The notes under the pieces are model-generated. The model ran no database searches. It was not told the DNA's origin and was given only the letters and a program-made list of their open reading frames with translations. A program made the translations under genes and the position numbers. 64,000 bases of DNA from a virus, in IMG/VR virus record IMGVR_UViG_3300023504_000004, positions 16,857 through 80,856 of that record. One strand, given 5' to 3'. Numbering within the stretch: position 1 is the first letter of the stretch; each line of letters begins with the position of its first letter. Positions 19,816 through 64,000 of this stretch are shown one piece after another.

Positions 19816-20015
19816 AAATATTGCCAGAAGGAAATAGGCAAATAAACCAAAAGAGCCTCTACACTGGGTTGCCGCCCATTGTGTAAAAGGCTCTTAGGTG
19901 CAAAAGCGGTCACCACAACTGCCATTGCGATATCATTATACATATTTTTTTCGAAAATCGCAAGGCATATCGCCAACTATTTCCAATTATTACCAATTTA
20001 ATAGAGAAAATATAT

Positions 20016-20087
20016 TGGGCCATCGCCAAAAGGTAAGGCACAGCACTTTGACTGCTGTATTTGCCGGTTCGAATCCGGCTGACCCAG
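20016..20087 (+). tRNA. tRNA, anticodon loop 'cTTTGac' giving UUG (Gln). One C·A mismatch in the acceptor stem.
   Basis: Hand-folded cloverleaf: acceptor tgggcca/tgaccca, D-arm gcc-aaaaggtaa-ggc, anticodon stem cagca/tgctg, T-arm gccgg-TTCGAAT-ccggc, discriminator g. Confidence 0.55.
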
Positions 20088-20256
20088 TGCGCTCGGACTT
20101 ATGTCCGGGTGTCCTAACGGTCGGCGTTAGGTTACATAAGTAGAGTACAAGCTGCTCTAGGTGTGTTTAGTGCGCGCAAAATACATTCACTTGTACAGGT
20201 TTGCCTTCTAATAGGTGTACCCATCATCGATTCCCGTCAGTCTCGGTGATGGTAAA

Positions 20257-20337
20257 GCTCCAATGGCGGAAAGGAAGACGCAGTGGACTCAAAATCCACC
20301 GATTTATATCGTGTGAGTTCGAATCTCACTTGGAGCA
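20257..20337 (+). tRNA. tRNA-Leu (anticodon CAA), type II with long variable arm
   Basis: Acceptor gctccaa/ttggagc, U8, 3-bp D-stem, anticodon stem gtgga/tccac with loop cTCAAaa, variable arm cgatttatatcgt, T-arm gtgag-TTCGAAT-ctcac, discriminator a. Confidence 0.65.
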
Positions 20338-21677: not shown

Positions 21678-23174
21678 ATGAAGAGAAAAGTTATTGAAGA
21701 AGCTGTGTCGGTAGAGTCTTACTTAAGCGATATCTCAAACGAAACGATTAGCGACAATCAGGACGTACAGAGAAATTTCTGTTCGACAGAAGAATTTGAG
21801 GATGGAATTATTTTAACCGTACTTACTGGTGATTATCTTCCTTCCTTAATTATCGGAGAAATTAATTCCGGAGGAATTACGAGAAAATATCTTATCGACG
21901 GAATGCAGAGAACATCGGCACTGAGAAGATTTAAAAATGGCGCTCATAAAATTAGAAAGAAATGCGAAGACAGCGTTGTTGAATATCAGACGAAGAAGCT
22001 CGATAAAAACGGAGTTGTTGTTCGAGACGAGAATGGAGAGCCGGTTTGGGAGATTGCAACATTCGATGTTAAGGGAAAGGGATACGAAGATCTTCCTGAA
22101 GAATTGAAAAGAGAGTTTGATAAATTCCAGGTAAAGCTTGCAACATTAACAGGTTACAAAACAATGTCGGAAGTCAGCAAAAAGATTAGACAGTTCAATA
22201 TGAATACAGGAATGAATACCAATCAGAAGAGTTTTACTTACCTTGATATGTACGCCAGAAAGGTAAAAGCAATTGGATCTAAAGGCTTTTTCAAGGAATC
22301 AACTGCACTTAAGAGCAAACAGAATGATAAAGGAGCTTGCGAGAGCATGATTCTCAGGTCGATTATGACTGTATTCCACTTAGATTCTTATAAGAAAAAT
22401 GCAAAAGACGTAGCTATTTTTCTCAATACAAATGCAAGTGACGCTGAGTTTAACTTATTTCAGCATCTTGCAGATAGTCTGTGCGATGTAGTCGGCGATG
22501 CATATAAGGAATTGTTCACTCAGAAAAATGTCCCGATTTGGTTTCCAGCATATAATCATTTCTTAGAGTTAGGCATTGAGGAAAAAGAATTCAGAAGATT
22601 TCTTGATGCTTTTAAAGAGAATTTACATACGAGCACGGTTAAATGTGATTACGAACAGAAAGATCTTAACGGAGATATTACTTGGGACAAACTCGATGGA
22701 TTGCGTGGAACAACTGACAATGGTCTTGTAAAGGCAAAAATCGATACGCTCTGCCAGTTAATTGACGATTTTTTTGGAATTAAAGCTGAAGAAAAAACCG
22801 AAATCGAGGCGGTAGAAGAAGAGAATAATAATGAAGTAGTGGAAACAAATGAAGTAGAGATTGATCCGGTATTAAAGTTTGCACAGGACAACGTAAGAGA
22901 AACTATTGAACCAGAAGACATTGCATTATATAAGGATTTTTTGAGCGATTTTGTAAAAGATGATTCACATATTTATGAAGCAGGAGAAGAAACGGTAATT
23001 GCTTTAATGGCATATGCATCTGATATTGAAAAAGATACAGAATTCAGCGAATGGATAGACAGAGAAAATTCCAAAAATAATACATATAGTCCAAGTCACA
23101 AAACAAACTTTACATATTTAAAACGTGATTTTGATGAGTTTTTAGAGAAGAGAAATGGAGGTAAAGCAGCATGA
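21678..23174 (+). CDS. DUF262 / ParB-like nuclease-domain protein (GmrSD N-terminal-domain-like), 498 aa
   Basis: Motif 'YLIDGMQRTSALRRF' resembles the DGQQR signature of DUF262/ParB-like NTPase domains. SD 'aaagggagattaatc'. Confidence 0.45.
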   Translation: MKRKVIEEAVSVESYLSDISNETISDNQDVQRNFCSTEEFEDGIILTVLTGDYLPSLIIGEINSGGITRKYLIDGMQRTSALRRFKNGAHKIRKKCEDSVVEYQTKKLDKNGVVVRDENGEPVWEIATFDVKGKGYEDLPEELKREFDKFQVKLATLTGYKTMSEVSKKIRQFNMNTGMNTNQKSFTYLDMYARKVKAIGSKGFFKESTALKSKQNDKGACESMILRSIMTVFHLDSYKKNAKDVAIFLNTNASDAEFNLFQHLADSLCDVVGDAYKELFTQKNVPIWFPAYNHFLELGIEEKEFRRFLDAFKENLHTSTVKCDYEQKDLNGDITWDKLDGLRGTTDNGLVKAKIDTLCQLIDDFFGIKAEEKTEIEAVEEENNNEVVETNEVEIDPVLKFAQDNVRETIEPEDIALYKDFLSDFVKDDSHIYEAGEETVIALMAYASDIEKDTEFSEWIDRENSKNNTYSPSHKTNFTYLKRDFDEFLEKRNGGKAA

Positions 23175-37659: not shown

Positions 37660-38520
37660 ATGCCAGTACATGATGATCTTGGTCTTCGCATGAAGACTTT
37701 TTATGAAGAAATTCCAAAAACAAAATTAATGCGGCGCTGCCCTGTTGCGATCAGAATTGACGGAAAAGCTTTTCACACGTTTACGCGCAAATTCCAGAAG
37801 CCATTTGACGAGATCTTGATCGAATCTATGCAGGAAACTATGAAATACCTGTGTGAAAATATCCAGGGATGCGTCTTAGGCTATACCCAGTCTGATGAGA
37901 TCACATTGATCTTGGTTGATTATAAGAAGCTGACATCTGTAGCCTGGTTCGACTATGAAGTTCAGAAGGTTTGTAGTATTGCGGCTTCCATGGCAACTAT
38001 GGCATTTAATAGAAATTTTAGAGATACAATTGATTTAGCTTACGATCAGGAATTTCGTGATTTAGGCTTAAATAAAGAACCAGATAAGAGTCAGGAAGAT
38101 GATTATAATAAAAAGTTTGAAGTATTAGAGAAAAAGTATGACAAGTATTATTCTCAAATCGATAAGGCGATGTTTGACGCCCGTTGCTTTAGCATTCCAA
38201 AAGAAGAAGTAGCAAACCTGATCTATTGGCGGCAGCTTGACGCCACACGCAACTCTATTCAAATGGTTGGACAAGCCAATTTCTCACATAAGGAACTTCA
38301 GAATAAGTCTTGTAACCAGATTCAGGATATGTTAATGGTTCAGAAAAGCATTAATTGGAATAATTTCCCGACTTATCAGAAGAGAGGAAGCTGTTGTATT
38401 AAAGAGGAGAAAATGATTGAAGACCAGATGAGAAGTAGTTGGATTATCGATACAGAAATTCCAATCTTTAAGGGTATTGATAGGGATTATGTTGAGAAAC
38501 GAATTCTTATTGGAGAATGA
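37660..38520 (+). CDS. Thg1-like protein (tRNA-His guanylyltransferase family 3'-5' nucleotidyltransferase)
   Basis: N-terminal 'CPVAIRIDGKAFHTFTRKF' matches the Thg1 signature (RxDGrxFxxFt). Total size matches Thg1/TLP. SD 'aaattggaggattaaaatt'. Confidence 0.6.
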   Translation: MPVHDDLGLRMKTFYEEIPKTKLMRRCPVAIRIDGKAFHTFTRKFQKPFDEILIESMQETMKYLCENIQGCVLGYTQSDEITLILVDYKKLTSVAWFDYEVQKVCSIAASMATMAFNRNFRDTIDLAYDQEFRDLGLNKEPDKSQEDDYNKKFEVLEKKYDKYYSQIDKAMFDARCFSIPKEEVANLIYWRQLDATRNSIQMVGQANFSHKELQNKSCNQIQDMLMVQKSINWNNFPTYQKRGSCCIKEEKMIEDQMRSSWIIDTEIPIFKGIDRDYVEKRILIGE

Positions 38521-38552
38521 TAAAATTACGCTTTCAACAGGAGAATATATAA

Positions 38553-38888
38553 ATGGCAACATATGAAAGACTGTACAATGAGAAGGGTGAGTTGGCAGTA
38601 TTGTATGGAAGTTTTTGGAGTACCGACGATGCTGAATTGCACAATTTAAAAGGTGAAGAAGCGTATCGGCTGGCTCTGGATAAAAGAGTTATAGAGTTCT
38701 GGCAGTCCAACAAAGATTTCTACGACATGTTGGACTTCTTAAAAAGTATTGGATACAACTGGCCAAGTGGAGAACCGGATAGACAAAAATTAGCTTGGAT
38801 TCCCAAAGGGACACCATTTTATATTCATACATATGACGGTGATGAAACAATTGAGACACCAGAAAGTTGCAACATGATTATAGCGTAG
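38553..38888 (+). CDS. Hypothetical protein
   Basis: ORF preceded by 'ctttcaacaggagaatatataa'. Confidence 0.5.
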   Translation: MATYERLYNEKGELAVLYGSFWSTDDAELHNLKGEEAYRLALDKRVIEFWQSNKDFYDMLDFLKSIGYNWPSGEPDRQKLAWIPKGTPFYIHTYDGDETIETPESCNMIIA

Positions 38889-38898
38889 GAGTAGAAAC

Positions 38899-39081
38899 AT
38901 GATATATATAGCATATGCTGTAGCATGGATTGCCACCGCTGTAGCAGTAATTTTCGGAATTAAATTAACAGGGTCAGCATGGTGTTTATGGGCTTTCTTT
39001 TTTCCGGCTGGCATTAGTTTATCTCACAACAAAAAAACTGATAATAACGATGAGGCGGACAGACATGATAAAGATGAATAA
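38899..39081 (+). CDS. Small membrane protein (60 aa)
   Basis: Two hydrophobic helices (IYIAYAVAWIATAVAVIFGI ... WCLWAFFFPAGISL). SD 'gtaggagtagaaac'. Confidence 0.45.
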   Translation: MIYIAYAVAWIATAVAVIFGIKLTGSAWCLWAFFFPAGISLSHNKKTDNNDEADRHDKDE

Positions 39082-39282
39082 AATAAGCATTTCAGGAGGT
39101 GTAACAGCACGAAAGTAATTCAAAACAATTATAAAAAAGAAGAGAATAAAAGAGTAGAGAAAAATACTTTTATTACATATTGTGACCAGTGTAATTCTGA
39201 GCTTGAAATCACAAAAGAAGATACTCATATTGGTTGGCTCGGTGCTCGATTTGTAACCTGTCCATGCTGTGGAGAAGAATCT

Positions 39283-39648
39283 ATGGTTGAAGAGCTGCAA
39301 GGCATTACTCTTACAAAAGATAATATCCAGTTTCCTGCGCATTTTTACAGAACAAAAACAGGGAAAATTGGTGTTAAGGAGGTTACAAATCAGAAAGTCG
39401 TAGATGAAATAAAGCGAGGAATTGAGTGGCTACGGAGTGAAAAGAATGAATATTATTGGTTTACAAAATATGGAGACCTCTTTCTAATTATATTTAAACA
39501 CGATGGAGGCGGAAAATATAACGTGTTGGTTACGAGGGACTGGTATGAAACAGATATCCCATTCGAAGAAGATGATTACAAATGGGATGAGAAAAGGCTT
39601 TCAGAAGATGATGACGACATGGGGTGGGGAGGAGATGATAATTTATGA
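39283..39648 (+). CDS. Hypothetical protein. The ORF is open upstream to 39082 and there encodes a zinc ribbon, but no canonical start codon is present.
   Basis: Listed ORF from the first ATG. The in-frame upstream stretch (39082-39282) encodes ...YCDQCNSELEITKEDTHIGWLGARFVTCPCCGEES... It follows the SD 'tttcaggaggtg' (39088-39099) but contains no ATG, GTG or TTG. Confidence 0.45.
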   Translation: MVEELQGITLTKDNIQFPAHFYRTKTGKIGVKEVTNQKVVDEIKRGIEWLRSEKNEYYWFTKYGDLFLIIFKHDGGGKYNVLVTRDWYETDIPFEEDDYKWDEKRLSEDDDDMGWGGDDNL

Positions 39649-41258
39649 CGGATTTAGAAACTTGGTTCCTTGATTTTGGCGATGATCATATTTTCAGATT
39701 ATACGATCCATTTTCAATTCGCGTAGTGGAAAAAGTGCGAATTAATAATATGATTGAACTTCCAAACAAAGATGTACTAATTGAATATTCGGAAGTTAAT
39801 AGCGAAGAAGATTTTAATGCAGAATGGGGTAAAGCACCTTTATGTTATAAAAACTCAGTGAGATCAAATTGGAGTATCATCCGCATGATAATCAATTTTG
39901 TTCAAATGCAACTGCCTTACCAGCAACCGAGTAAAGGAGAAAAAATGAGTTGGAATCCTGTGCTGAATAAATTTATTGAAATAAAAAATACATATAAAAA
40001 TAAAATTGGCGAACCAACCTATTCTTATAAATCTGGCTATACAGATGAATCAAAAACATGTCTCGAGCGATGGGTTGAAGAGTTAATTGAAAAATTCCCA
40101 GATAAGCAATTCCAGCAGTACGAAGAACTTCTTTCTTGCTTGGAAATGAATCAATGGAATCAGTTTTTGATAATTAGATATGCCAGATATAGTAATGTAT
40201 ATGACGGTGAGGTCGAGTCTTCTGGCGAAGATTTTTGGGACAGATATAGCGGATTTTATAGAGAATGCAGGAGTGTTGTTATTGACGTTGTAAATGATAA
40301 AATTGTATTAGCACCATTTAAGAAATTTTTTAACATCAATGAACTTGAAGAAACTCGTCTGGAGAATGTAGAACGCAGAATTGCTACCGCGACAAATGTT
40401 GAATTTTCTAATAAACTTGATGGCTCAATGCAATCGGCAACGTGGTATGATGGTCGGATTATTATGGCTGGAAGTCAGGCAATTGATCCAAGTAATTCAT
40501 GGAGATTGCAGGAAGGTTATAGAATGCTTGATTTGCGTCCAGGTTATAAGAGAATGCTGACCGAACACCCTGGTCTGACTTTTATTTTTGAATATATTTC
40601 GCTTAAAGACGCTCATGTTGTTAAATATAAAAAAGAGCAAGAGGGACTATATTTGATTGGCGTGAGAAACAATAATGACGGCAGAGAGTTACCGTACCGT
40701 TCTGTTTTAGATGTCGCATATGTTTATAATATTCCAACAACGGAGATTTTTGATAAAACATTAGACCAGGTAATGGCAGAACTTGATGAAAAATCTTCTG
40801 ATGAAGCAGAAGGGTTTGTCATTAACATTGATGGATATAAGGTTAAAGTCAAGTACAATGACTACGTTCATATCCATAAAGCTTTATCTAAATCATCCTC
40901 AATAAATCTAATCATTAAGTCTATTGCAGACGATACGTTCGACGACCTTCTTTCGAAACTTCCAGAAGCTTATCATGACAATGTAAAAAGAGTTGCAAAT
41001 ATTGTTTTTAATTATATTTGTGACACTGAGAATATCATTAGAAAATATTATAACGAAGCGCCAAAGAACGATAAAAAGAAATTTATGATTTGGGTCAATT
41101 CTAATGTTCCCAAAAAATATCGCGGATTCTGTCGATCTTTGTATCTCGGAGATCCAATTAATGTATTAAAAAAACATAATGGTTCTGGCTATTTAAAACT
41201 TAAAGATATGGGTATCGAGGATTATGGAAAACTATTTGTAAACAATGAGAACGAATAA
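39645..41258 (+). CDS. ATP-dependent RNA ligase (Rnl-type nucleotidyltransferase)
   Basis: Motif I 'SNKLDGSMQSA' (KxDG). Motif IV/V 'EGFVINIDGYKVKVKYNDY' (EGxV...KxK). 537 aa. Start overlaps the upstream stop (ATGA). Confidence 0.65.
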   Translation: MTDLETWFLDFGDDHIFRLYDPFSIRVVEKVRINNMIELPNKDVLIEYSEVNSEEDFNAEWGKAPLCYKNSVRSNWSIIRMIINFVQMQLPYQQPSKGEKMSWNPVLNKFIEIKNTYKNKIGEPTYSYKSGYTDESKTCLERWVEELIEKFPDKQFQQYEELLSCLEMNQWNQFLIIRYARYSNVYDGEVESSGEDFWDRYSGFYRECRSVVIDVVNDKIVLAPFKKFFNINELEETRLENVERRIATATNVEFSNKLDGSMQSATWYDGRIIMAGSQAIDPSNSWRLQEGYRMLDLRPGYKRMLTEHPGLTFIFEYISLKDAHVVKYKKEQEGLYLIGVRNNNDGRELPYRSVLDVAYVYNIPTTEIFDKTLDQVMAELDEKSSDEAEGFVINIDGYKVKVKYNDYVHIHKALSKSSSINLIIKSIADDTFDDLLSKLPEAYHDNVKRVANIVFNYICDTENIIRKYYNEAPKNDKKKFMIWVNSNVPKKYRGFCRSLYLGDPINVLKKHNGSGYLKLKDMGIEDYGKLFVNNENE

Positions 41259-41285
41259 CAGGGAACAAGAAAAAACGAGGTAAAA

Positions 41286-42215
41286 ATGACAATCAAAGAC
41301 ATTGAAACAAAACTTTCGCCTAAACCATCACTCTATGTTATGTGCGGGCTTTCCGGAAGTGGAAAATCCACCATTGCAAAAGAGTATCAGAAAAAGATTC
41401 CTGGTAGCGTGATTATCTCTTCTGATGAGATTAGAGAGGAATTGTGTGACGGAAACCGTGCGGATCAGAGTAAGAACGACGAAGTGTTTAGAGTATTTCA
41501 CGATAGAATCCGAAAAAATTTGGAGAAACATAAGAGTGTAATCGTAGATGCAACCAATATTACAATGAAGTCCCGTAGAGCTATTCTGGGCAAAGTAAAC
41601 GGTCTGGATATTAACAAGATTTGCCTGATCGTTCCGAAACCATACGAGCAATGCCTGGTTGACAACAAACAGCGTGAGTGGCCGGTTCCTGATGAGGTGA
41701 TTGAACACCAGCGCAGTCGGTTCCAGATTCCATTCAAGGAGGAAGGTTGGACGGAGATTAGAATTGAGAGTGGATTTAAGGATCGGCCATATAGATTCGA
41801 TGAGATGATGAAAGGGTATGATCAGAAAAGTCCATATCATGCCTTTACTTTAGACGAGCATTGTCAACTTGCGGCTGACATGTTCTTCGACATCAAAGGG
41901 TATAGACAGCCATGGTATGCTGGAGCACTACTGCATGATGTCGGAAAACTGTTTACGCAGACTATCGATGAAAACGGTGTAGCTCATTACTACTCGCATG
42001 AAAACGTCGGCGCATATGAGATTCTATCATTAAAGCCGAATGAAGAGGATATTGTAGACATTTGTTTCCTGATTAATTATCACATGCTACCGTTCAGTTG
42101 GAATCTTAATTGGCGCGAGCCGACGAGAACTATGAAGAGATGGCAGCGTAGGTTTGGAGAAGAGAAGTATCAAATGTTGTTAGACTTCCATGAGTGTGAT
42201 ATGGCTATGGCGTAG
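41286..42215 (+). CDS. Polynucleotide kinase (P-loop) fused to an HD phosphohydrolase domain
   Basis: Walker A 'CGLSGSGKST', Walker B-like 'VIVDATN'. C-terminal HD motifs 'LDEH', 'LLHDVGK', 'YSHEN', 'INYHM'. SD 'aaaacgaggtaaaa'. Confidence 0.65.
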   Translation: MTIKDIETKLSPKPSLYVMCGLSGSGKSTIAKEYQKKIPGSVIISSDEIREELCDGNRADQSKNDEVFRVFHDRIRKNLEKHKSVIVDATNITMKSRRAILGKVNGLDINKICLIVPKPYEQCLVDNKQREWPVPDEVIEHQRSRFQIPFKEEGWTEIRIESGFKDRPYRFDEMMKGYDQKSPYHAFTLDEHCQLAADMFFDIKGYRQPWYAGALLHDVGKLFTQTIDENGVAHYYSHENVGAYEILSLKPNEEDIVDICFLINYHMLPFSWNLNWREPTRTMKRWQRRFGEEKYQMLLDFHECDMAMA

Positions 42216-46367: not shown

Positions 46368-46428
46368 ACAATATGGTGTGGTGCTGGATTTCGATTCAGT
46401 GCTACACCAGAAAAGAGAATAAATATAT

Positions 46429-46500
46429 AGCGGATTAGTGTAATGGTTAGCACGGGAGACTTTGGATCTCCAGACGTGAGTTCGAATCTCACATCCGCCG
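46429..46500 (+). tRNA. tRNA, anticodon loop 'cTTTGga' giving UUG (Gln-like). A1·C72 mismatch.
   Basis: Hand-folded: acceptor agcggat/atccgcc, U8, D-arm gtgt-aatggtta-gcac, anticodon stem ggaga/tctcc, variable agac, T-arm gtgag-TTCGAAT-ctcac, discriminator g. Confidence 0.55.
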
Positions 46501-46564
46501 TTAATAAATACAATTTGGGAGGTAGATACTTATTTATAGCGATTGGAAAAACGAATATAAAGAT

Positions 46565-47431
46565 ATGGGAGATTATTATATTGGATATACTCCTAAAAAC
46601 AAAACTGAATACTATTTTGACAAAGAATGTTTTGATGTTGTGAAACAGTATAAATGGAGAGTCAACAGCGATTTATATCCAATAACATTTGTTGATGGAA
46701 AAGAAATTTCTATGGTTACATTACTTTTTGGAAATAGTCCTCATACCTATAAAAATGGTAAGAAGAATGATTTACGAAAAGAGAATATATGTAATATAAA
46801 AGGATTTAAAGATAAAGGACGTGTTTTCCTTAATGGATATGTGTCAATTTATATGCCAGAACATAAACGAGCATTTGATAATGGATGCGTATATGAACAT
46901 ATCCTTGTAGCAGAACGAACGTTGGGCAGAGAATTGAAGCCTGATGAATGTGTTCATCACAAAGACCAAAACAGAACAAATAACTCACCAGAAAATTTAA
47001 TGGTCTTCGCGACAAATAATGATCACGTAGCTTTTCACGGAGGAGCAAAAGCGATTCTTACTGACGAAGGAAATTATAAAACAGAAAGATTGGGAATTCC
47101 TGTATATATTTATAGAAATAGAACCGCCAAAGATATAAAAAACAACATTAAAGATACTGGCAGTGTTTATGTTCCAGGATACAATTTATGCCCTTGCTGT
47201 AACGAAAATATTAAATCAAGCGATGCAAAAATGTGCTTAGAGTGTTACAGAAAATTACGAGTAAAAAATATTCCCAAAAAGGAAGAATTAGAAGCGTTGA
47301 TCTATCAAGAATCTTTTGAAGAAATTGGGAGAATGTATAAAGTGTCTGGAAAGGCTGTAACAAAATGGTGTAAAAAATATGGTTTACCATCTCGACGTTC
47401 AGAAATAAATAAAATTTTAGCGACAAAATAA
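46565..47431 (+). CDS. HNH homing endonuclease
   Basis: 'CVHHKDQNRTNNSPENLMVFATNNDHVAFH' is an HNH core. C-terminal 'CPCC...CLECY' zinc finger and an HTH-like tail. Lies between two tRNA genes. Confidence 0.7.
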   Translation: MGDYYIGYTPKNKTEYYFDKECFDVVKQYKWRVNSDLYPITFVDGKEISMVTLLFGNSPHTYKNGKKNDLRKENICNIKGFKDKGRVFLNGYVSIYMPEHKRAFDNGCVYEHILVAERTLGRELKPDECVHHKDQNRTNNSPENLMVFATNNDHVAFHGGAKAILTDEGNYKTERLGIPVYIYRNRTAKDIKNNIKDTGSVYVPGYNLCPCCNENIKSSDAKMCLECYRKLRVKNIPKKEELEALIYQESFEEIGRMYKVSGKAVTKWCKKYGLPSRRSEINKILATK

Positions 47432-47442
47432 AGTCGCTATAT

Positions 47443-47531
47443 GCGAACTTAACTCAACTGGTAAGAGTCACGGCCTTATAAGCCGTATGCCCTGGCAAGG
47501 TTTAAACTCGGTTCGACTCCGAGAGTTCGCA
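47443..47531 (+). tRNA. Type II (long variable arm) tRNA, apparent anticodon UAU (loop cTTATaa), 89 nt
   Basis: Acceptor gcgaact/agttcgc, D-arm actc-aactggtaa-gagt, anticodon stem acggc/gccgt, ~20-nt variable arm with internal tgcc/ggca stem, T-arm ctcgg-TTCGACT-ccgag, discriminator a. Confidence 0.55.
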
Positions 47532-47574
47532 CTGCAGCAATGCAAATATAATATTTTAAAGGAGGATTTCTATT

Positions 47575-59357: not shown

Positions 59358-61622
59358 GTGAAAAACTTGGAAGAAATTAGGTTTAAATGTATACCGGTAA
59401 CACAACGTTATTACTCGGAGGATTCTAATTATGGCGTTTTTGTATTTCATACAAAAGATGATATTCCTAAATACGATGCAGTTCCACAGGATCCTTTCGG
59501 CGGGTATGTGGATGAAGATTTAAAAATGTCAATTCTTGCTGGGAATATGCAGCAATTATATATTGGGTCAGAATATGAAGTGACAGCAACATTGGACTAT
59601 AACAATAAATACAAGAACTATCAGTATAAACCAAAGTCAGTTGTGTCTGTTGCGCCGAAAACAGAAGAACAGCAGAAAATGTTTCTTGAATCCATTGTTA
59701 CGAAAAGACAGGCAGAGACTTTAATCGAAAAATATCCGAATATTGTACAGGATATTATCGACGGAACAGATAATGTTGATTTGGCAAATCTTAAAGGTAT
59801 TGGAGAACATACCTATAACTTGATCAAAGAAAAAGTCCTGAGTAATTATGTTATTTCCGACATTTTGGTCATGTTACAGCCTTTAGGAGTTACATACAAT
59901 AAAATCAAAAAATTAATTTCCAACGAACCGAACCCAACTCTGTTAAAGGAAAAATTGACAGAAAACCCATATATTATGCTTCAAATCAAAGGCTTTGGTT
60001 TTAAAACAGTAGACCAATTGGCATTAAAGATTAACCCACAGATTCGAGTTTCTGCAAAACGAGTTTATGCCTTCATAGAGAATTACCTCGAAGAGCTTGG
60101 GAATAGTAGCGGTCATACATGGGTAAATATCAATACTCTTGAAAATGCAGTAAGAGATAACCTTTTCGATTGTATGGATATATACAAAACGATTATGGAT
60201 AACGAATGCAATAATGAGTTAGTATTTCATATTGAACGTGATATGGAGAAAAACAGAATTGGACTAAAAAGATATTATGAAAAAGAAAAGTCAATTCTTG
60301 ATATTCTGAAAAAACTTAACAGTTATGACACTTTAGAAGTTTCTAATGATGATATTAAAGCTGGTATTTCTAAGTCAGAATCGGATCAAGGGTTCTTTTT
60401 AACAGAAGAACAGCGTTCAGTTGTAGAGAATAGTATTAATAGCAATGTTGTTATTATTACAGGAAAGGCAGGAAGTGGTAAAACTTCAATTTCTCGCGCA
60501 ATCTTAAACGTTTACAAAAAGGCAGGATATTCAATTTCATGTTGTGCATTATCAGCGATGGCGGCACAAAGAATCACAGAAGCGACTGGATTTCCAGCGT
60601 GTACGATCCATAGACTGTTAGGATATACTCCCAAAGGATTTTCATTTAATCATATCGACCCTCTTCCTTCTGATGTAATTCTTGTCGATGAATGCTCGAT
60701 GATCAATGTCGGAATTTTTCATGCAATTCTTGACGCAGTTCAAGAGGGAAAGAAAATCATCATGTGTGGTGACAACAGACAGCTTCCACCAATCGGATAT
60801 GGAAATGTGTTTGGCGATCTTTTAGAATTCAAAAATGAATTTGCAATTTACAGACTTACAAAAGTTTTAAGACAAGCAGAAAAGTCTGGTATTTTAATGG
60901 ACGCGAATAAAATTAGAGGAGGAATTTATCCAATTAATGGACCAGAACTCCGTATTGTAAATGGAGAATTGCAAGATATGATTTACATGTTCAGAGAATC
61001 CAGAGAAGCATTACAGAATATCGCCATTAAAACATATATGAAAACGGTCGAGCAAGAAGGCATGGACAGCGCCGTGATTATTACCCCAAGACGTGAAAAG
61101 TGCGGAAACAGCGCATTGGAAATCAACAAAAGGATTACTGATCTGCTGTTTAAACCATCTGAAAAGCATGTTCAATATGGAGAAAGAACATATTATGTAG
61201 GGTCAAAGGTGATGCAAACCGATAATGATTATGAAAAAAATGTGTTTAATGGAGAAATCGGATATATAAAAAATATTTCTGATGTTGAAGTTGATGGAAA
61301 AAAGTCAATGCAGCTTGAAATCGAATTTAAATTAGGCGACCAGAAAAAAATGGTTCTTTATGATAAAAGCGAACTTGATCAATTGGATTTGGCATACGCG
61401 GCCACATGCCATAAATTGCAAGGAAGTGGCATTAAAAATGTCATCATTATTATTGATATGACGCATTATACACTACTTGATACTTGTATGCTCTACACAG
61501 CAATCACGAGAGCAAAAAAGAGATGTCTTTTATTGGCAGAACCGGCAGCGTTTAAAATGTGCATGACAAACAATAAAAGCGTTTCCAGACATACCTGGTT
61601 ATCGCTTCAGGAAGGAGAATAA
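59358..61622 (+). CDS. RecD-like (exonuclease V alpha / PIF1-family) helicase with N-terminal helix-hairpin-helix repeats
   Basis: Walker A 'ITGKAGSGKTS', Walker B 'ILVDECSMI', C-terminal 'YAATCHKLQGSGIKNVIII' (motif V/VI-like). HhH-like 'LKGIGEHTYNLIKE' and 'IKGFGFKTVDQLAL'. Confidence 0.7.
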   Translation: MKNLEEIRFKCIPVTQRYYSEDSNYGVFVFHTKDDIPKYDAVPQDPFGGYVDEDLKMSILAGNMQQLYIGSEYEVTATLDYNNKYKNYQYKPKSVVSVAPKTEEQQKMFLESIVTKRQAETLIEKYPNIVQDIIDGTDNVDLANLKGIGEHTYNLIKEKVLSNYVISDILVMLQPLGVTYNKIKKLISNEPNPTLLKEKLTENPYIMLQIKGFGFKTVDQLALKINPQIRVSAKRVYAFIENYLEELGNSSGHTWVNINTLENAVRDNLFDCMDIYKTIMDNECNNELVFHIERDMEKNRIGLKRYYEKEKSILDILKKLNSYDTLEVSNDDIKAGISKSESDQGFFLTEEQRSVVENSINSNVVIITGKAGSGKTSISRAILNVYKKAGYSISCCALSAMAAQRITEATGFPACTIHRLLGYTPKGFSFNHIDPLPSDVILVDECSMINVGIFHAILDAVQEGKKIIMCGDNRQLPPIGYGNVFGDLLEFKNEFAIYRLTKVLRQAEKSGILMDANKIRGGIYPINGPELRIVNGELQDMIYMFRESREALQNIAIKTYMKTVEQEGMDSAVIITPRREKCGNSALEINKRITDLLFKPSEKHVQYGERTYYVGSKVMQTDNDYEKNVFNGEIGYIKNISDVEVDGKKSMQLEIEFKLGDQKKMVLYDKSELDQLDLAYAATCHKLQGSGIKNVIIIIDMTHYTLLDTCMLYTAITRAKKRCLLLAEPAAFKMCMTNNKSVSRHTWLSLQEGE

Positions 61623-61626
61623 ATCT

Positions 61627-62043
61627 ATGACATTTGGTACAGCTACATTAGATATGCCGACCGGCTATAAAATACTTGCTCCTCAAATGGAGCTTACATA
61701 CCTTAATGTGCAGCCTCTGACGATCCACAGAGACTTTATATACGTCGTTATGATGTGTGAACGCATGGGAGTCAAAAATTTCTTCCCAGACTTCGGTTCA
61801 AGCCGTCTGGTGGGCTGGTACGGCTCCTATGAAACGGCAGTTTCAGCCGTTATGGAAAACTGGTGCGGAATCAATGAGTGCTGTTATGATTATGCTTTAA
61901 TCGAGAAAATCGAGGAAGGTCTGTATAAACCAGCCAATAGTAGCGAGCGTTGGTGGTTCAAATATGATCAGGTGACTGATACATATGCTCCAGTAGAAGA
62001 ACCGAAAGAATACGAACATTACAGTGGTTTTACCATCGGATAG
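61627..62043 (+). CDS. Hypothetical protein
   Basis: ORF preceded by 'ggaaggagaataaatctATG'. Confidence 0.5.
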   Translation: MTFGTATLDMPTGYKILAPQMELTYLNVQPLTIHRDFIYVVMMCERMGVKNFFPDFGSSRLVGWYGSYETAVSAVMENWCGINECCYDYALIEKIEEGLYKPANSSERWWFKYDQVTDTYAPVEEPKEYEHYSGFTIG

Positions 62044-62055
62044 GAGAATAATAAA

Positions 62056-62205
62056 ATGAGAACATTTAAAAAGGGCTTAGGGACTTGTGGACTTATACTA
62101 TTTATAACGTGTTTAGTAGCATTAAATGAAAAATTTGGGTCTACGGCATGGCTACTTGGACTTGGTTGTGGAGCAGGAGCAACTATATCAAATCTATTGG
62201 ATTAG
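62056..62205 (+). CDS. Small membrane protein (49 aa)
   Basis: Unlisted ORF after 'taggagaataataaaATG'. Sequence MRTFKKGLGTCGLILFITCLVALNEKFGSTAWLLGLGCGAGA... Confidence 0.35.
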   Translation: MRTFKKGLGTCGLILFITCLVALNEKFGSTAWLLGLGCGAGATISNLLD

Positions 62206-62215
62206 CGGAGGTTGT

Positions 62216-62650
62216 ATGATTTACAGAGAACGAAAAGAAGTTTGGAAATTAATTGAGTCGCATAAAAATAAACCTATCTGGGCGTGTGCTTATGAACTGC
62301 AAGGGAATAAAAACAAAAATGGCCTTATTCAAAAACCGGTACAAGGTGAGATTTATGAAAATGGTTATAGAACTTATTTTGCTCCGTATAAAAAAGGTTC
62401 AAAGAGTCTCGCAAAATCCAAAGAAGTCTTGGCCGATTTAAGTCGTTATTATGCCGATACATATAAGGAATGCGCAGAACTTTACAATTCTCTTGTCGAT
62501 GATACAATTAAGTATTTCTGGCAGAGAATGAGAGACTGTGCGAAAGATAGAATTGAGGACATCGATATTATTTGTAATAACCCCGAAGATCAGCAGTTAT
62601 TTGACATTTTTATAAATTATGATCCGGAGGTCTCAAATGAACTTAGTTAA
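62216..62650 (+). CDS. Hypothetical protein
   Basis: Internal ATG of ORF 62126-62650, after 'tagcggaggttgt'. Confidence 0.5.
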   Translation: MIYRERKEVWKLIESHKNKPIWACAYELQGNKNKNGLIQKPVQGEIYENGYRTYFAPYKKGSKSLAKSKEVLADLSRYYADTYKECAELYNSLVDDTIKYFWQRMRDCAKDRIEDIDIICNNPEDQQLFDIFINYDPEVSNELS

Positions 62651-63035
62651 AATTATCGATGAGTTTAAGCTACAGAAATGCGGTGCTTTTATCTGTAAAA
62701 AATGTGATGCTAACATTCCCAACATCAGGAAATATAAATACATAGACATATGCGAATATTGGTACGGTGATGAAGACTGTATGGGTGAAAATCCATGGAT
62801 CGATGTTGAAGGCATAGGATATGGTTCTATTTGGTGCAGTAACTGGCTACGTTGTCATTCAAAATTCCTGCAACGCAGAGCAATCAGGAAATACGCACGG
62901 CGGTTTATAGAATTAATGCGCGAAAACACTCTGGTGCTCACATATAAATTTGATGGTGCTGAGTGCTTCGGATTTATGTTTGGTGATAGCTGTTATGTAC
63001 AGGTTCGAGTGAGCAATAAAGAACTGAATATATAG
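62637..63035 (+). CDS. Hypothetical Cys-rich protein
   Basis: Internal ATG of ORF 62619-63035, after 'ccggaggtctcaa'. Confidence 0.45.
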   Translation: MNLVKIIDEFKLQKCGAFICKKCDANIPNIRKYKYIDICEYWYGDEDCMGENPWIDVEGIGYGSIWCSNWLRCHSKFLQRRAIRKYARRFIELMRENTLVLTYKFDGAECFGFMFGDSCYVQVRVSNKELNI

Positions 63036-63043
63036 GAGAACAC

Positions 63044-63286
63044 ATGGAAGAAGAGAGTGAAGTTAAAACCGTTTTAGTAAAAATGAAATGTGATAAATGC
63101 AAAAAAGGATTCATGGAGAAAGACGGAAATGTTATATTTCCATCATTTCCTCCTCAATTTCCACACAAATGTAATAATTGCGCACATATCGAGAATTATA
63201 TAAAACAGTATCCGTATGTAAAATATGTGACTACAATACACGATGGTGATTATTTAGACAAGGATATGTCAGCAACCAGTTTTTAG
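63044..63286 (+). CDS. Zinc-ribbon protein
   Basis: CDKC...CNNC pairs. Preceded by 'tataggagaacacATG'. Confidence 0.5.
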   Translation: MEEESEVKTVLVKMKCDKCKKGFMEKDGNVIFPSFPPQFPHKCNNCAHIENYIKQYPYVKYVTTIHDGDYLDKDMSATSF

Positions 63287-63298
63287 AAGGAGAAATAG

Positions 63299-63535
63299 AT
63301 GGGATTAATTAAATTTCATATTGCATTTTCGTTATTATGTCTGATTACATTTTATGGCTTTGCAAAAGTATTTTATAACAACATTAAAAAGAATGGTTAT
63401 ATTAATGATGATCCAGTGACATTAAATCTTGGGATATGGTCATTTTTCATTCCAATCATGAATGTGCTTCTTGTAGTCGCAGTGTTTGTGATGATTTTTA
63501 TCAAGAAAGACGATTTGCTAAAATTTGGAGAATAA
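63299..63535 (+). CDS. Small membrane protein (2 TM helices)
   Basis: Hydrophobic segments 'IAFSLLCLITFYGF' and 'LGIWSFFIPIMNVLLVVAVFVMIFI'. SD 'tagaaggagaaatag'. Confidence 0.5.
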   Translation: MGLIKFHIAFSLLCLITFYGFAKVFYNNIKKNGYINDDPVTLNLGIWSFFIPIMNVLLVVAVFVMIFIKKDDLLKFGE

Positions 63536-63574
63536 TAATAGTAACAAATAAAACCGTTGTTTCAGGAGGAAGAA

Positions 63575-63766
63575 ATGTTAAAGAGAGTTTCGGTATGCCA
63601 AGTTACATTGAATCCTCAATTTTGTACAATTAAAGATTATAAAACCCTTGAGAATCTCGGTTTTAATGTGGCTTGGATGGATGATAATGGAGATAATTCA
63701 TACGAAATAGTAACCATATGTGAAGAGTTCTTGACAGAAGAATCAGAGGACTGGAATTTAAATTAA
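63575..63766 (+). CDS. Hypothetical acidic protein
   Basis: Internal ATG of ORF 63557-63766, after 'gtttcaggaggaagaaATG'. Confidence 0.45.
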   Translation: MLKRVSVCQVTLNPQFCTIKDYKTLENLGFNVAWMDDNGDNSYEIVTICEEFLTEESEDWNLN

Positions 63767-63818
63767 TTGCAAATATTAACAAAAGAATATTCAGTAGATT
63801 TAAATAGGAGAATTTTAA

Positions 63819-63959
63819 ATGAAGAACACAAATTGGAAAGTACCTGTTATTACCAGAGTAGGAATTTTTGCTATTGTATTAATGATTGTATTTGGTATCC
63901 AGGGAGCACAGAACAAAGCGATTGCATATGAAGAACAGGTCTATACTGCTGATTCAGAT
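63819..63959 (+). CDS. 5' part of a membrane-protein CDS, truncated. The reading frame runs into adapter sequence.
   Basis: ATG after 'aataggagaatttta'. MKNTNWKVPVITRVGIFAIVLMIVFGIQGAQNK... The genuine sequence ends where the Illumina adapter begins at 63960. Confidence 0.4.
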
Positions 63960-63992
63960 AGATCGGAAGAGCGTCGTGTAGGGAAAGAGTGT
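63960..63992. other. Illumina TruSeq adapter sequence (sequencing or assembly artefact)
   Basis: Exact 33-nt match to AGATCGGAAGAGCGTCGTGTAGGGAAAGAGTGT at the 3' end of the window. Confidence 0.9.
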
Positions 63993-64000
63993 CTTCGCCT

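Follow-up and report, generated by a model that had tools for sequence, protein, structure and literature searches.

The 64,000-nucleotide stretch of DNA analyzed here (the window) carries all of its long open reading frames (ORFs) on the + strand and has a GC content of ∼0.36. It encodes a DnaB-like helicase, a primase, RecJ, a DNA polymerase III alpha subunit (Pol III alpha), and a RecD2-like helicase, as well as a methyltransferase with DUF4942. Pol III alpha shares just 33 to 38% identity with its closest annotated phage counterparts, and related contigs reach 99 to 170 kb. The window is thus a 64-kb fragment from the genome of a large, uncultivated phage. An RNA/tRNA repair-like cluster lies at 37660-42215, and four tRNAs (two tRNA-Gln(ttg), a tRNA-Leu(caa), and a long [90-nt] tRNA-Ile(tat)) occur elsewhere in the window:

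37660-38520, Thg1-like tRNA-His guanylyltransferase
39645-41258, protein with a T4 Rnl1-type RNA ligase domain
41286-42215, polynucleotide kinase/phosphatase-like protein
20015-20088, 20257-20337, 46428-46501, and 47443-47532, tRNAs

An HNH endonuclease ORF (46565-47431) sits between the last two tRNAs. Further, a 498-aa protein at 21678-23174 gave a weak match to the N-terminal domain of the GmrSD restriction endonuclease (27.2 bits, below the cutoff of 33.2).

The features at the 3' end of the window, all on the + strand, are as follows:

63819-63959, + strand, native 5' fragment (codons 1 to 47) of a predicted LemA-family gene, identical to residues 1 to 47 of the proteins from relatives L012 and L016
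63819-64000, + strand, chimeric ORF of 47 native and 13 adapter-encoded codons with no stop, as given by its translation and by the divergence of relatives at 63959/63960
63960-63992, + strand, TruSeq-type adapter, reverse complement of the P5-side Read 1 sequencing-primer region (exact 33/33 match)
63993-64000, + strand, i5 sample index D505 in reverse complement (CTTCGCCT, from AGGCGAAG)

The window thus ends in ...GGTCTATACTGCTGATTCAGAT, followed by AGATCGGAAGAGCGTCGTGTAGGGAAAGAGTGT and then by CTTCGCCT. The initial annotation had reported an exact TruSeq 33-mer at this end and had named an inexact match as the only observation that could overturn it; on re-examination, AGATCGGAAGAGCGTCGTGTAGGGAAAGAGTGT matched the Illumina TruSeq-type adapter with 0 mismatches. 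It was unique in the window with up to 3 mismatches tolerated and was found in 0 of 100 dinucleotide-preserving shuffles, and its chance expectation under a uniform model is 1.7e-15. No second copy of the 13-nt seed AGATCGGAAGAGC was found on either strand of the window, and no Nextera adapter was found in the 64 kb. GC content is 0.54 in the 41-nt tail versus 0.31 in the 460 nt before it.

The adapter had been taken to be 33 nt long. This length is right for the common part, but the final 8 nt had been missed; they are the i5 index, so that the adapter reaches 64000. The oligonucleotide D505_F is printed as AATGATACGGCGACCACCGAGATCTACAC-AGGCGAAG-ACACTCTTTCCCTACACGACGCTCTTCCGATCT... (PMC7868615); the 33-mer is the reverse complement of its ACACTCTTTCCCTACACGACGCTCTTCCGATCT segment, and the reverse complement of D505_F begins with exactly the bases of the entire tail (63960-64000). 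The same 33-mer has been named "adapter 2," a library adapter, in another study, where the single-index universal adapter runs on as ...GAGTGTA after it (PMC7303419). Because a single-index adapter would give AGATCTCGG directly after the 33-mer, the source was a dual-indexed library. The arrangement does not differ from that of the TruSeq dual-index P5 adapter, with the same 33-nt common part and then an 8-nt i5 index, here at the 3' extremity of the window; the P5 flow-cell part, GTGTAGATCTCGGTGGTCGCCGTATCATT, would fall past the window end. The final 41 bases are thus synthetic throughout, made up of the common adapter and the D505 index. We also considered reading an assembler k-mer size from the 41-nt adapter length and dropped the idea as too speculative.

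That deposited assemblies can retain remnants of Illumina adapters is well documented (PMC13182109). We compared window positions 62000-64000 with 50,697 phage records, and the sole matches were of 32 to 41 nt, all to the terminal adapter string. They came from seven unrelated records, of Enterococcus, Escherichia, Klebsiella, Bifidobacterium, and Chryseobacterium phages and one environmental phage:

MW202825.1, 6021-6069
OR360270.1, 41597-41704
OU509537.1, 58535-58588
PQ462667.1, 81431-81468
PQ571273.1, 257-291
KT254133.1, 59297-59329
OQ703102.1, 40844-40875

In three of the seven, the adapter lies within ∼110 nt of the record end. At the 3' end of OR360270.1, the 33-mer is followed by CTCACAAG, GTGTAGATCTCGGTGGTCGCCGTATCATT, five A's, and poly-G, the last of which we take to be the no-signal artifact of two-colour chemistry. 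OU509537.1 ends with the 33-mer, CTTTCTAA, and GTGTAGATCTCGG. MW202825.1, a circular 34-kb record flagged UNVERIFIED_CONTAM, carries the string internally as the 33-mer, CTTCGCCT, and GTGTAGAT, and then continues with other phage sequence. These records show a variable 8-nt slot after the 33-mer, and thus CTTCGCCT in the window fills the index slot. The contaminated records (MW202825.1, OR360270.1, and OU509537.1) share the adapter string with the window, often at record ends; in contrast to them, the adapter of the window is terminal in the visible sequence, truncates a gene, and joins no two sequences. In two records the adapter lies beneath an annotated coding sequence (CDS), a hypothetical-protein CDS in MW202825.1 (with the same D505 octamer) and a "tail protein" CDS in PQ462667.1.

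The last ORF of the window begins with an ATG at 63819 and reads MKNTNWKVPVITRVGIFAIVLMIVFGIQGAQNKAIAYEEQVYTADSD up to the junction and RSEERRVGKECLR beyond it (...YTADSD and then RSEERRVGKECLR). The junction falls exactly on a codon boundary, after codon 47, and RSEERRVGKECLR consists of the 13 C-terminal residues translated from the adapter and index. The initial annotation had described this ORF as artificially extended, which agrees with what we found in relatives: their intact ortholog, a LemA protein of 183 aa, goes on with ...DSDVKVQEKRRVDLVYNLV... instead. A 183-aa product with a precomputed match to PF04011 (LemA) was present at this position in 7 of 10 long loci. In both L012 and L016, the 183-aa protein is identical to the window ORF over residues 1 to 47 and then reads VKVQEKRRVDLVYNLVDCVKQYDKHE..., and the L016 protein matched PF04011 over residues 46 to 170 with an E value of 2.2e-29 and 102.6 bits (cutoff, 26.2).

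Pfam searches with the 47-aa and 60-aa fragments from the window gave no match (for the 47-aa fragment, at E of ≤10), and the domain starts at residue 46. Since Pfam was silent on the fragments, the LemA assignment was taken from the intact orthologs; judged by these rather than by the window alone, the native last gene belongs to the LemA family (PF04011). A hydrophobic stretch, VGIFAIVLMIVFGI, is seen in the N-terminal part of the translation. Compared with the LemA proteins of relatives, the window keeps this hydrophobic N-terminal segment and the first 2 domain residues. The adapter thus removes essentially the whole LemA domain and leaves a 47-aa stub without a Pfam match.

We looked for the native continuation of this gene in public sequence collections. 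The native 29-mer beside the junction had no exact match in the viral contig collection, and the native 22-mer ending at 63959 had none in the genome contig collection. In a metagenome scan the same 22-mer was found in two contigs, L006 and L007, both of which continue GTTAAGGTGCAGGAAAAA... where the window has adapter. Neither the exact 138-aa ORF nor the chimeric 60-aa product was found in the protein look-up. The exact 80-aa protein encoded at 63044-63286 was present in 112 blocks of public assemblies, from which ten contigs (34 to 170 kb) were taken for comparison, and ten further loci, on contigs of ≤36.5 kb and none of them from the source contig, were reached through a 132-aa form of the upstream gene. 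Eighteen loci gave alignments that reach 63959, representing 16 distinct contigs (L020 and L021 are duplicate contigs of L011 and L016). L004 and L005, reached through the RecD2-like helicase (78% and 60% amino acid identity), were of no use for the native continuation; their downstream region is unconserved and holds no homolog of the last ORF.

By blastn, these 18 loci (16 contigs) matched the window to exactly 63959, with 86 to 100% identity upstream. Past this position they read GT[TC]AA[GA]GT[GA]CAGGAAAAA..., and the adapter seed was absent from all of them. Since the native next base is G and the first base of the adapter is A, the breakpoint lies exactly at 63959/63960. The earlier claim that the sequence is not biological after about 63959 therefore holds to the base. 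L016 was 100% identical to the window over its last 960 nt, and several relatives were collinear with the window over its last 11 kb at 91 to 95%.

The relatives also vary close to this position. The intact LemA form (...GGAAAAACGTAGAG) was found in 11 of the 16 related contigs, and a form with a deletion of ∼1.96 kb (...GGAAAAATGTCAAAG) was found in the other 5, so that most of the LemA gene is missing by nature in these 5 relatives. The left breakpoint of the deletion is about 11 to 21 nt past the equivalent of 63959, and an 11-nt microhomology flanks the deletion (L011 10927-10937 versus L009 10927-10937 and 12883-12893; also in L006, L019, L022, and L027). While the intact form carries the 183-aa LemA gene, a 250-aa ORF, and other genes, the deletion leaves a stub ORF of 51 to 72 aa.

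A further boundary is apparent at 61612, near the end of the RecD2-like helicase gene (59358-61622), where modules may have been swapped. For L010 and L013 to L016, alignment with the window starts no earlier than 61612 (at 99.2% for L016). Upstream of this point they carry a 1,087- or 1,097-aa Pol III alpha and an ERCC4 nuclease, whereas the window has its own module of a 1,069-aa Pol III alpha and the RecD2-like helicase.

The gene order around LemA bears on whether 63959 could be an end of the genome. Upstream lie the RecD2-like helicase, Pol III alpha, and RecJ. Downstream, synteny extends for at least 9 kb in ten relatives and takes in the 250-aa ORF, an NAD-dependent DNA ligase, a guanylate kinase, and the anaerobic ribonucleotide reductase NrdD. 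NrdD is 727 to 743 aa long in other relatives, unlike in L014 (18706-20243; ENA ERZ8153673 NODE_498), where it is 1,102 aa long and has Pfam matches to intein/LAGLIDADG homing-endonuclease domains. None of the relatives' contigs breaks at 63959: all 16 that reach the position cross it, and ten run on for >9 kb. The site is inside a gene, not intergenic, and no terminase was found near it.

We searched for a terminal repeat by comparing the last and first 2 kb with the rest of the window; the best matches were of 21 to 23 nt at an E value of ∼0.1, for a window that may not be the whole contig. At its other end (positions 1 to 180), the window starts inside an ORF with a stop near 175, and there is no adapter. 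A start in mid-ORF without adapter means that the window either was cut from a longer contig or comes from a contig that starts mid-gene; it is not a complete genome. Taken together, the conserved LemA gene, the synteny downstream, and the crossing of the position by all relatives indicate that 63959 is not a genome terminus. The initial annotation had reached the same view of the contig end, and the location inside a conserved gene, the synteny that relatives show downstream, and the lack of a shared terminal repeat bear it out. These sequence comparisons show that 63959 is a mid-gene, mid-genome position.

How, then, did the adapter come to stand there? Very probably, the adapter and D505 index were read through a short insert, left untrimmed, and retained by the assembler at a contig end. 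The P5-side adapter string is one that is trimmed off the 3' end of Read 2, and in libraries from TruSeq-HT-type, NEBNext, and similar ligation kits, P5-side read-through is removed with cutadapt, fastp, or Trimmomatic. In this case the end of an insert would have happened to fall at 63959, and Read 2 would have passed beyond it to the P5-side adapter with its index. With trimming absent or incomplete, the assembler could have extended the contig by 41 nt using one or a few such reads, on a path that dead-ends in adapter. A sample with both the LemA and the deletion forms, or low coverage, would presumably halt the native extension and let the adapter tip survive; the deletion polymorphism may thus be the reason that the assembly broke at 63959. 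The source contig itself probably ends at window position 64000.

Another way to place synthetic adapter here would be an internal chimeric join in a longer contig, with the window stopping 41 nt in and unrelated sequence following after GTGTAGAT.... The same configuration is known in GenBank record MW202825.1, and the window shows nothing past 64000. However, a window boundary would be unlikely to fall near an internal adapter by chance unless it had been set by the contig end, the 64 kb contain no further piece of adapter, and adapter tips at contig ends are commoner, as in the three phage records mentioned above. That the window stops after 41 nt of adapter makes an internal join less likely still, and we regard it as improbable. 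Far less credible is a resemblance to adapter that arose by chance or is truly biological, which we consider next to impossible: we found no point in its favor, the identity is with a synthetic oligonucleotide, index included, the expected number of chance matches to the 41-mer is 2.6e-20, and none of the relatives has the sequence at the orthologous position.

It could also be argued that 63959 is a real and recurrent DNA end, for example a phage terminus or the product of site-specific cleavage, and that adapters were joined to it. Natural DNA ends can receive adapters directly by ligation, and from a fixed end one junction would recur in many reads, which would help an assembler keep the adapter tip. 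Moreover, when a genome is terminally redundant, its assembly can pass through the terminus, so that continuity in relatives is not an absolute counter-proof. Nevertheless, the site follows codon 47 of a conserved gene for a 183-aa LemA protein, its surroundings are a region of replication and nucleotide metabolism that lacks a terminase, every one of the distinct contigs that reach it crosses over, the two window ends have no repeat in common, and a single read-through read suffices as an explanation. We thus consider a physical end very unlikely, and a recurrent natural double-strand end in particular, for example through a site-specific cut in LemA beside the deletion-prone hotspot or a packaging-related end, slightly more so. 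If it were true, the contig end would report a real molecular feature of the phage. Read-through of a short insert remains our preferred account of the junction.

We therefore confirm the terminal 41 nt as an ordinary data-cleaning artifact and not a biological feature. Positions 63960-64000 should be trimmed, and the D505 index could help to trace the library of origin. Records can be screened for adapter with NCBI VecScreen or FCS-adaptor. It is important to note that several public phage records contain the contaminant, and that annotated CDSs cover it in some of them, which shows how such remnants reach protein databases. Likewise, the peptide RSEERRVGKECLR should not be taken as protein sequence. 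For this phage, the end of the sequence is no evidence for a genome terminus or for genome completeness, and its last gene should be read as the 5' partial form of a gene that, from its intact orthologs, belongs to the LemA family.
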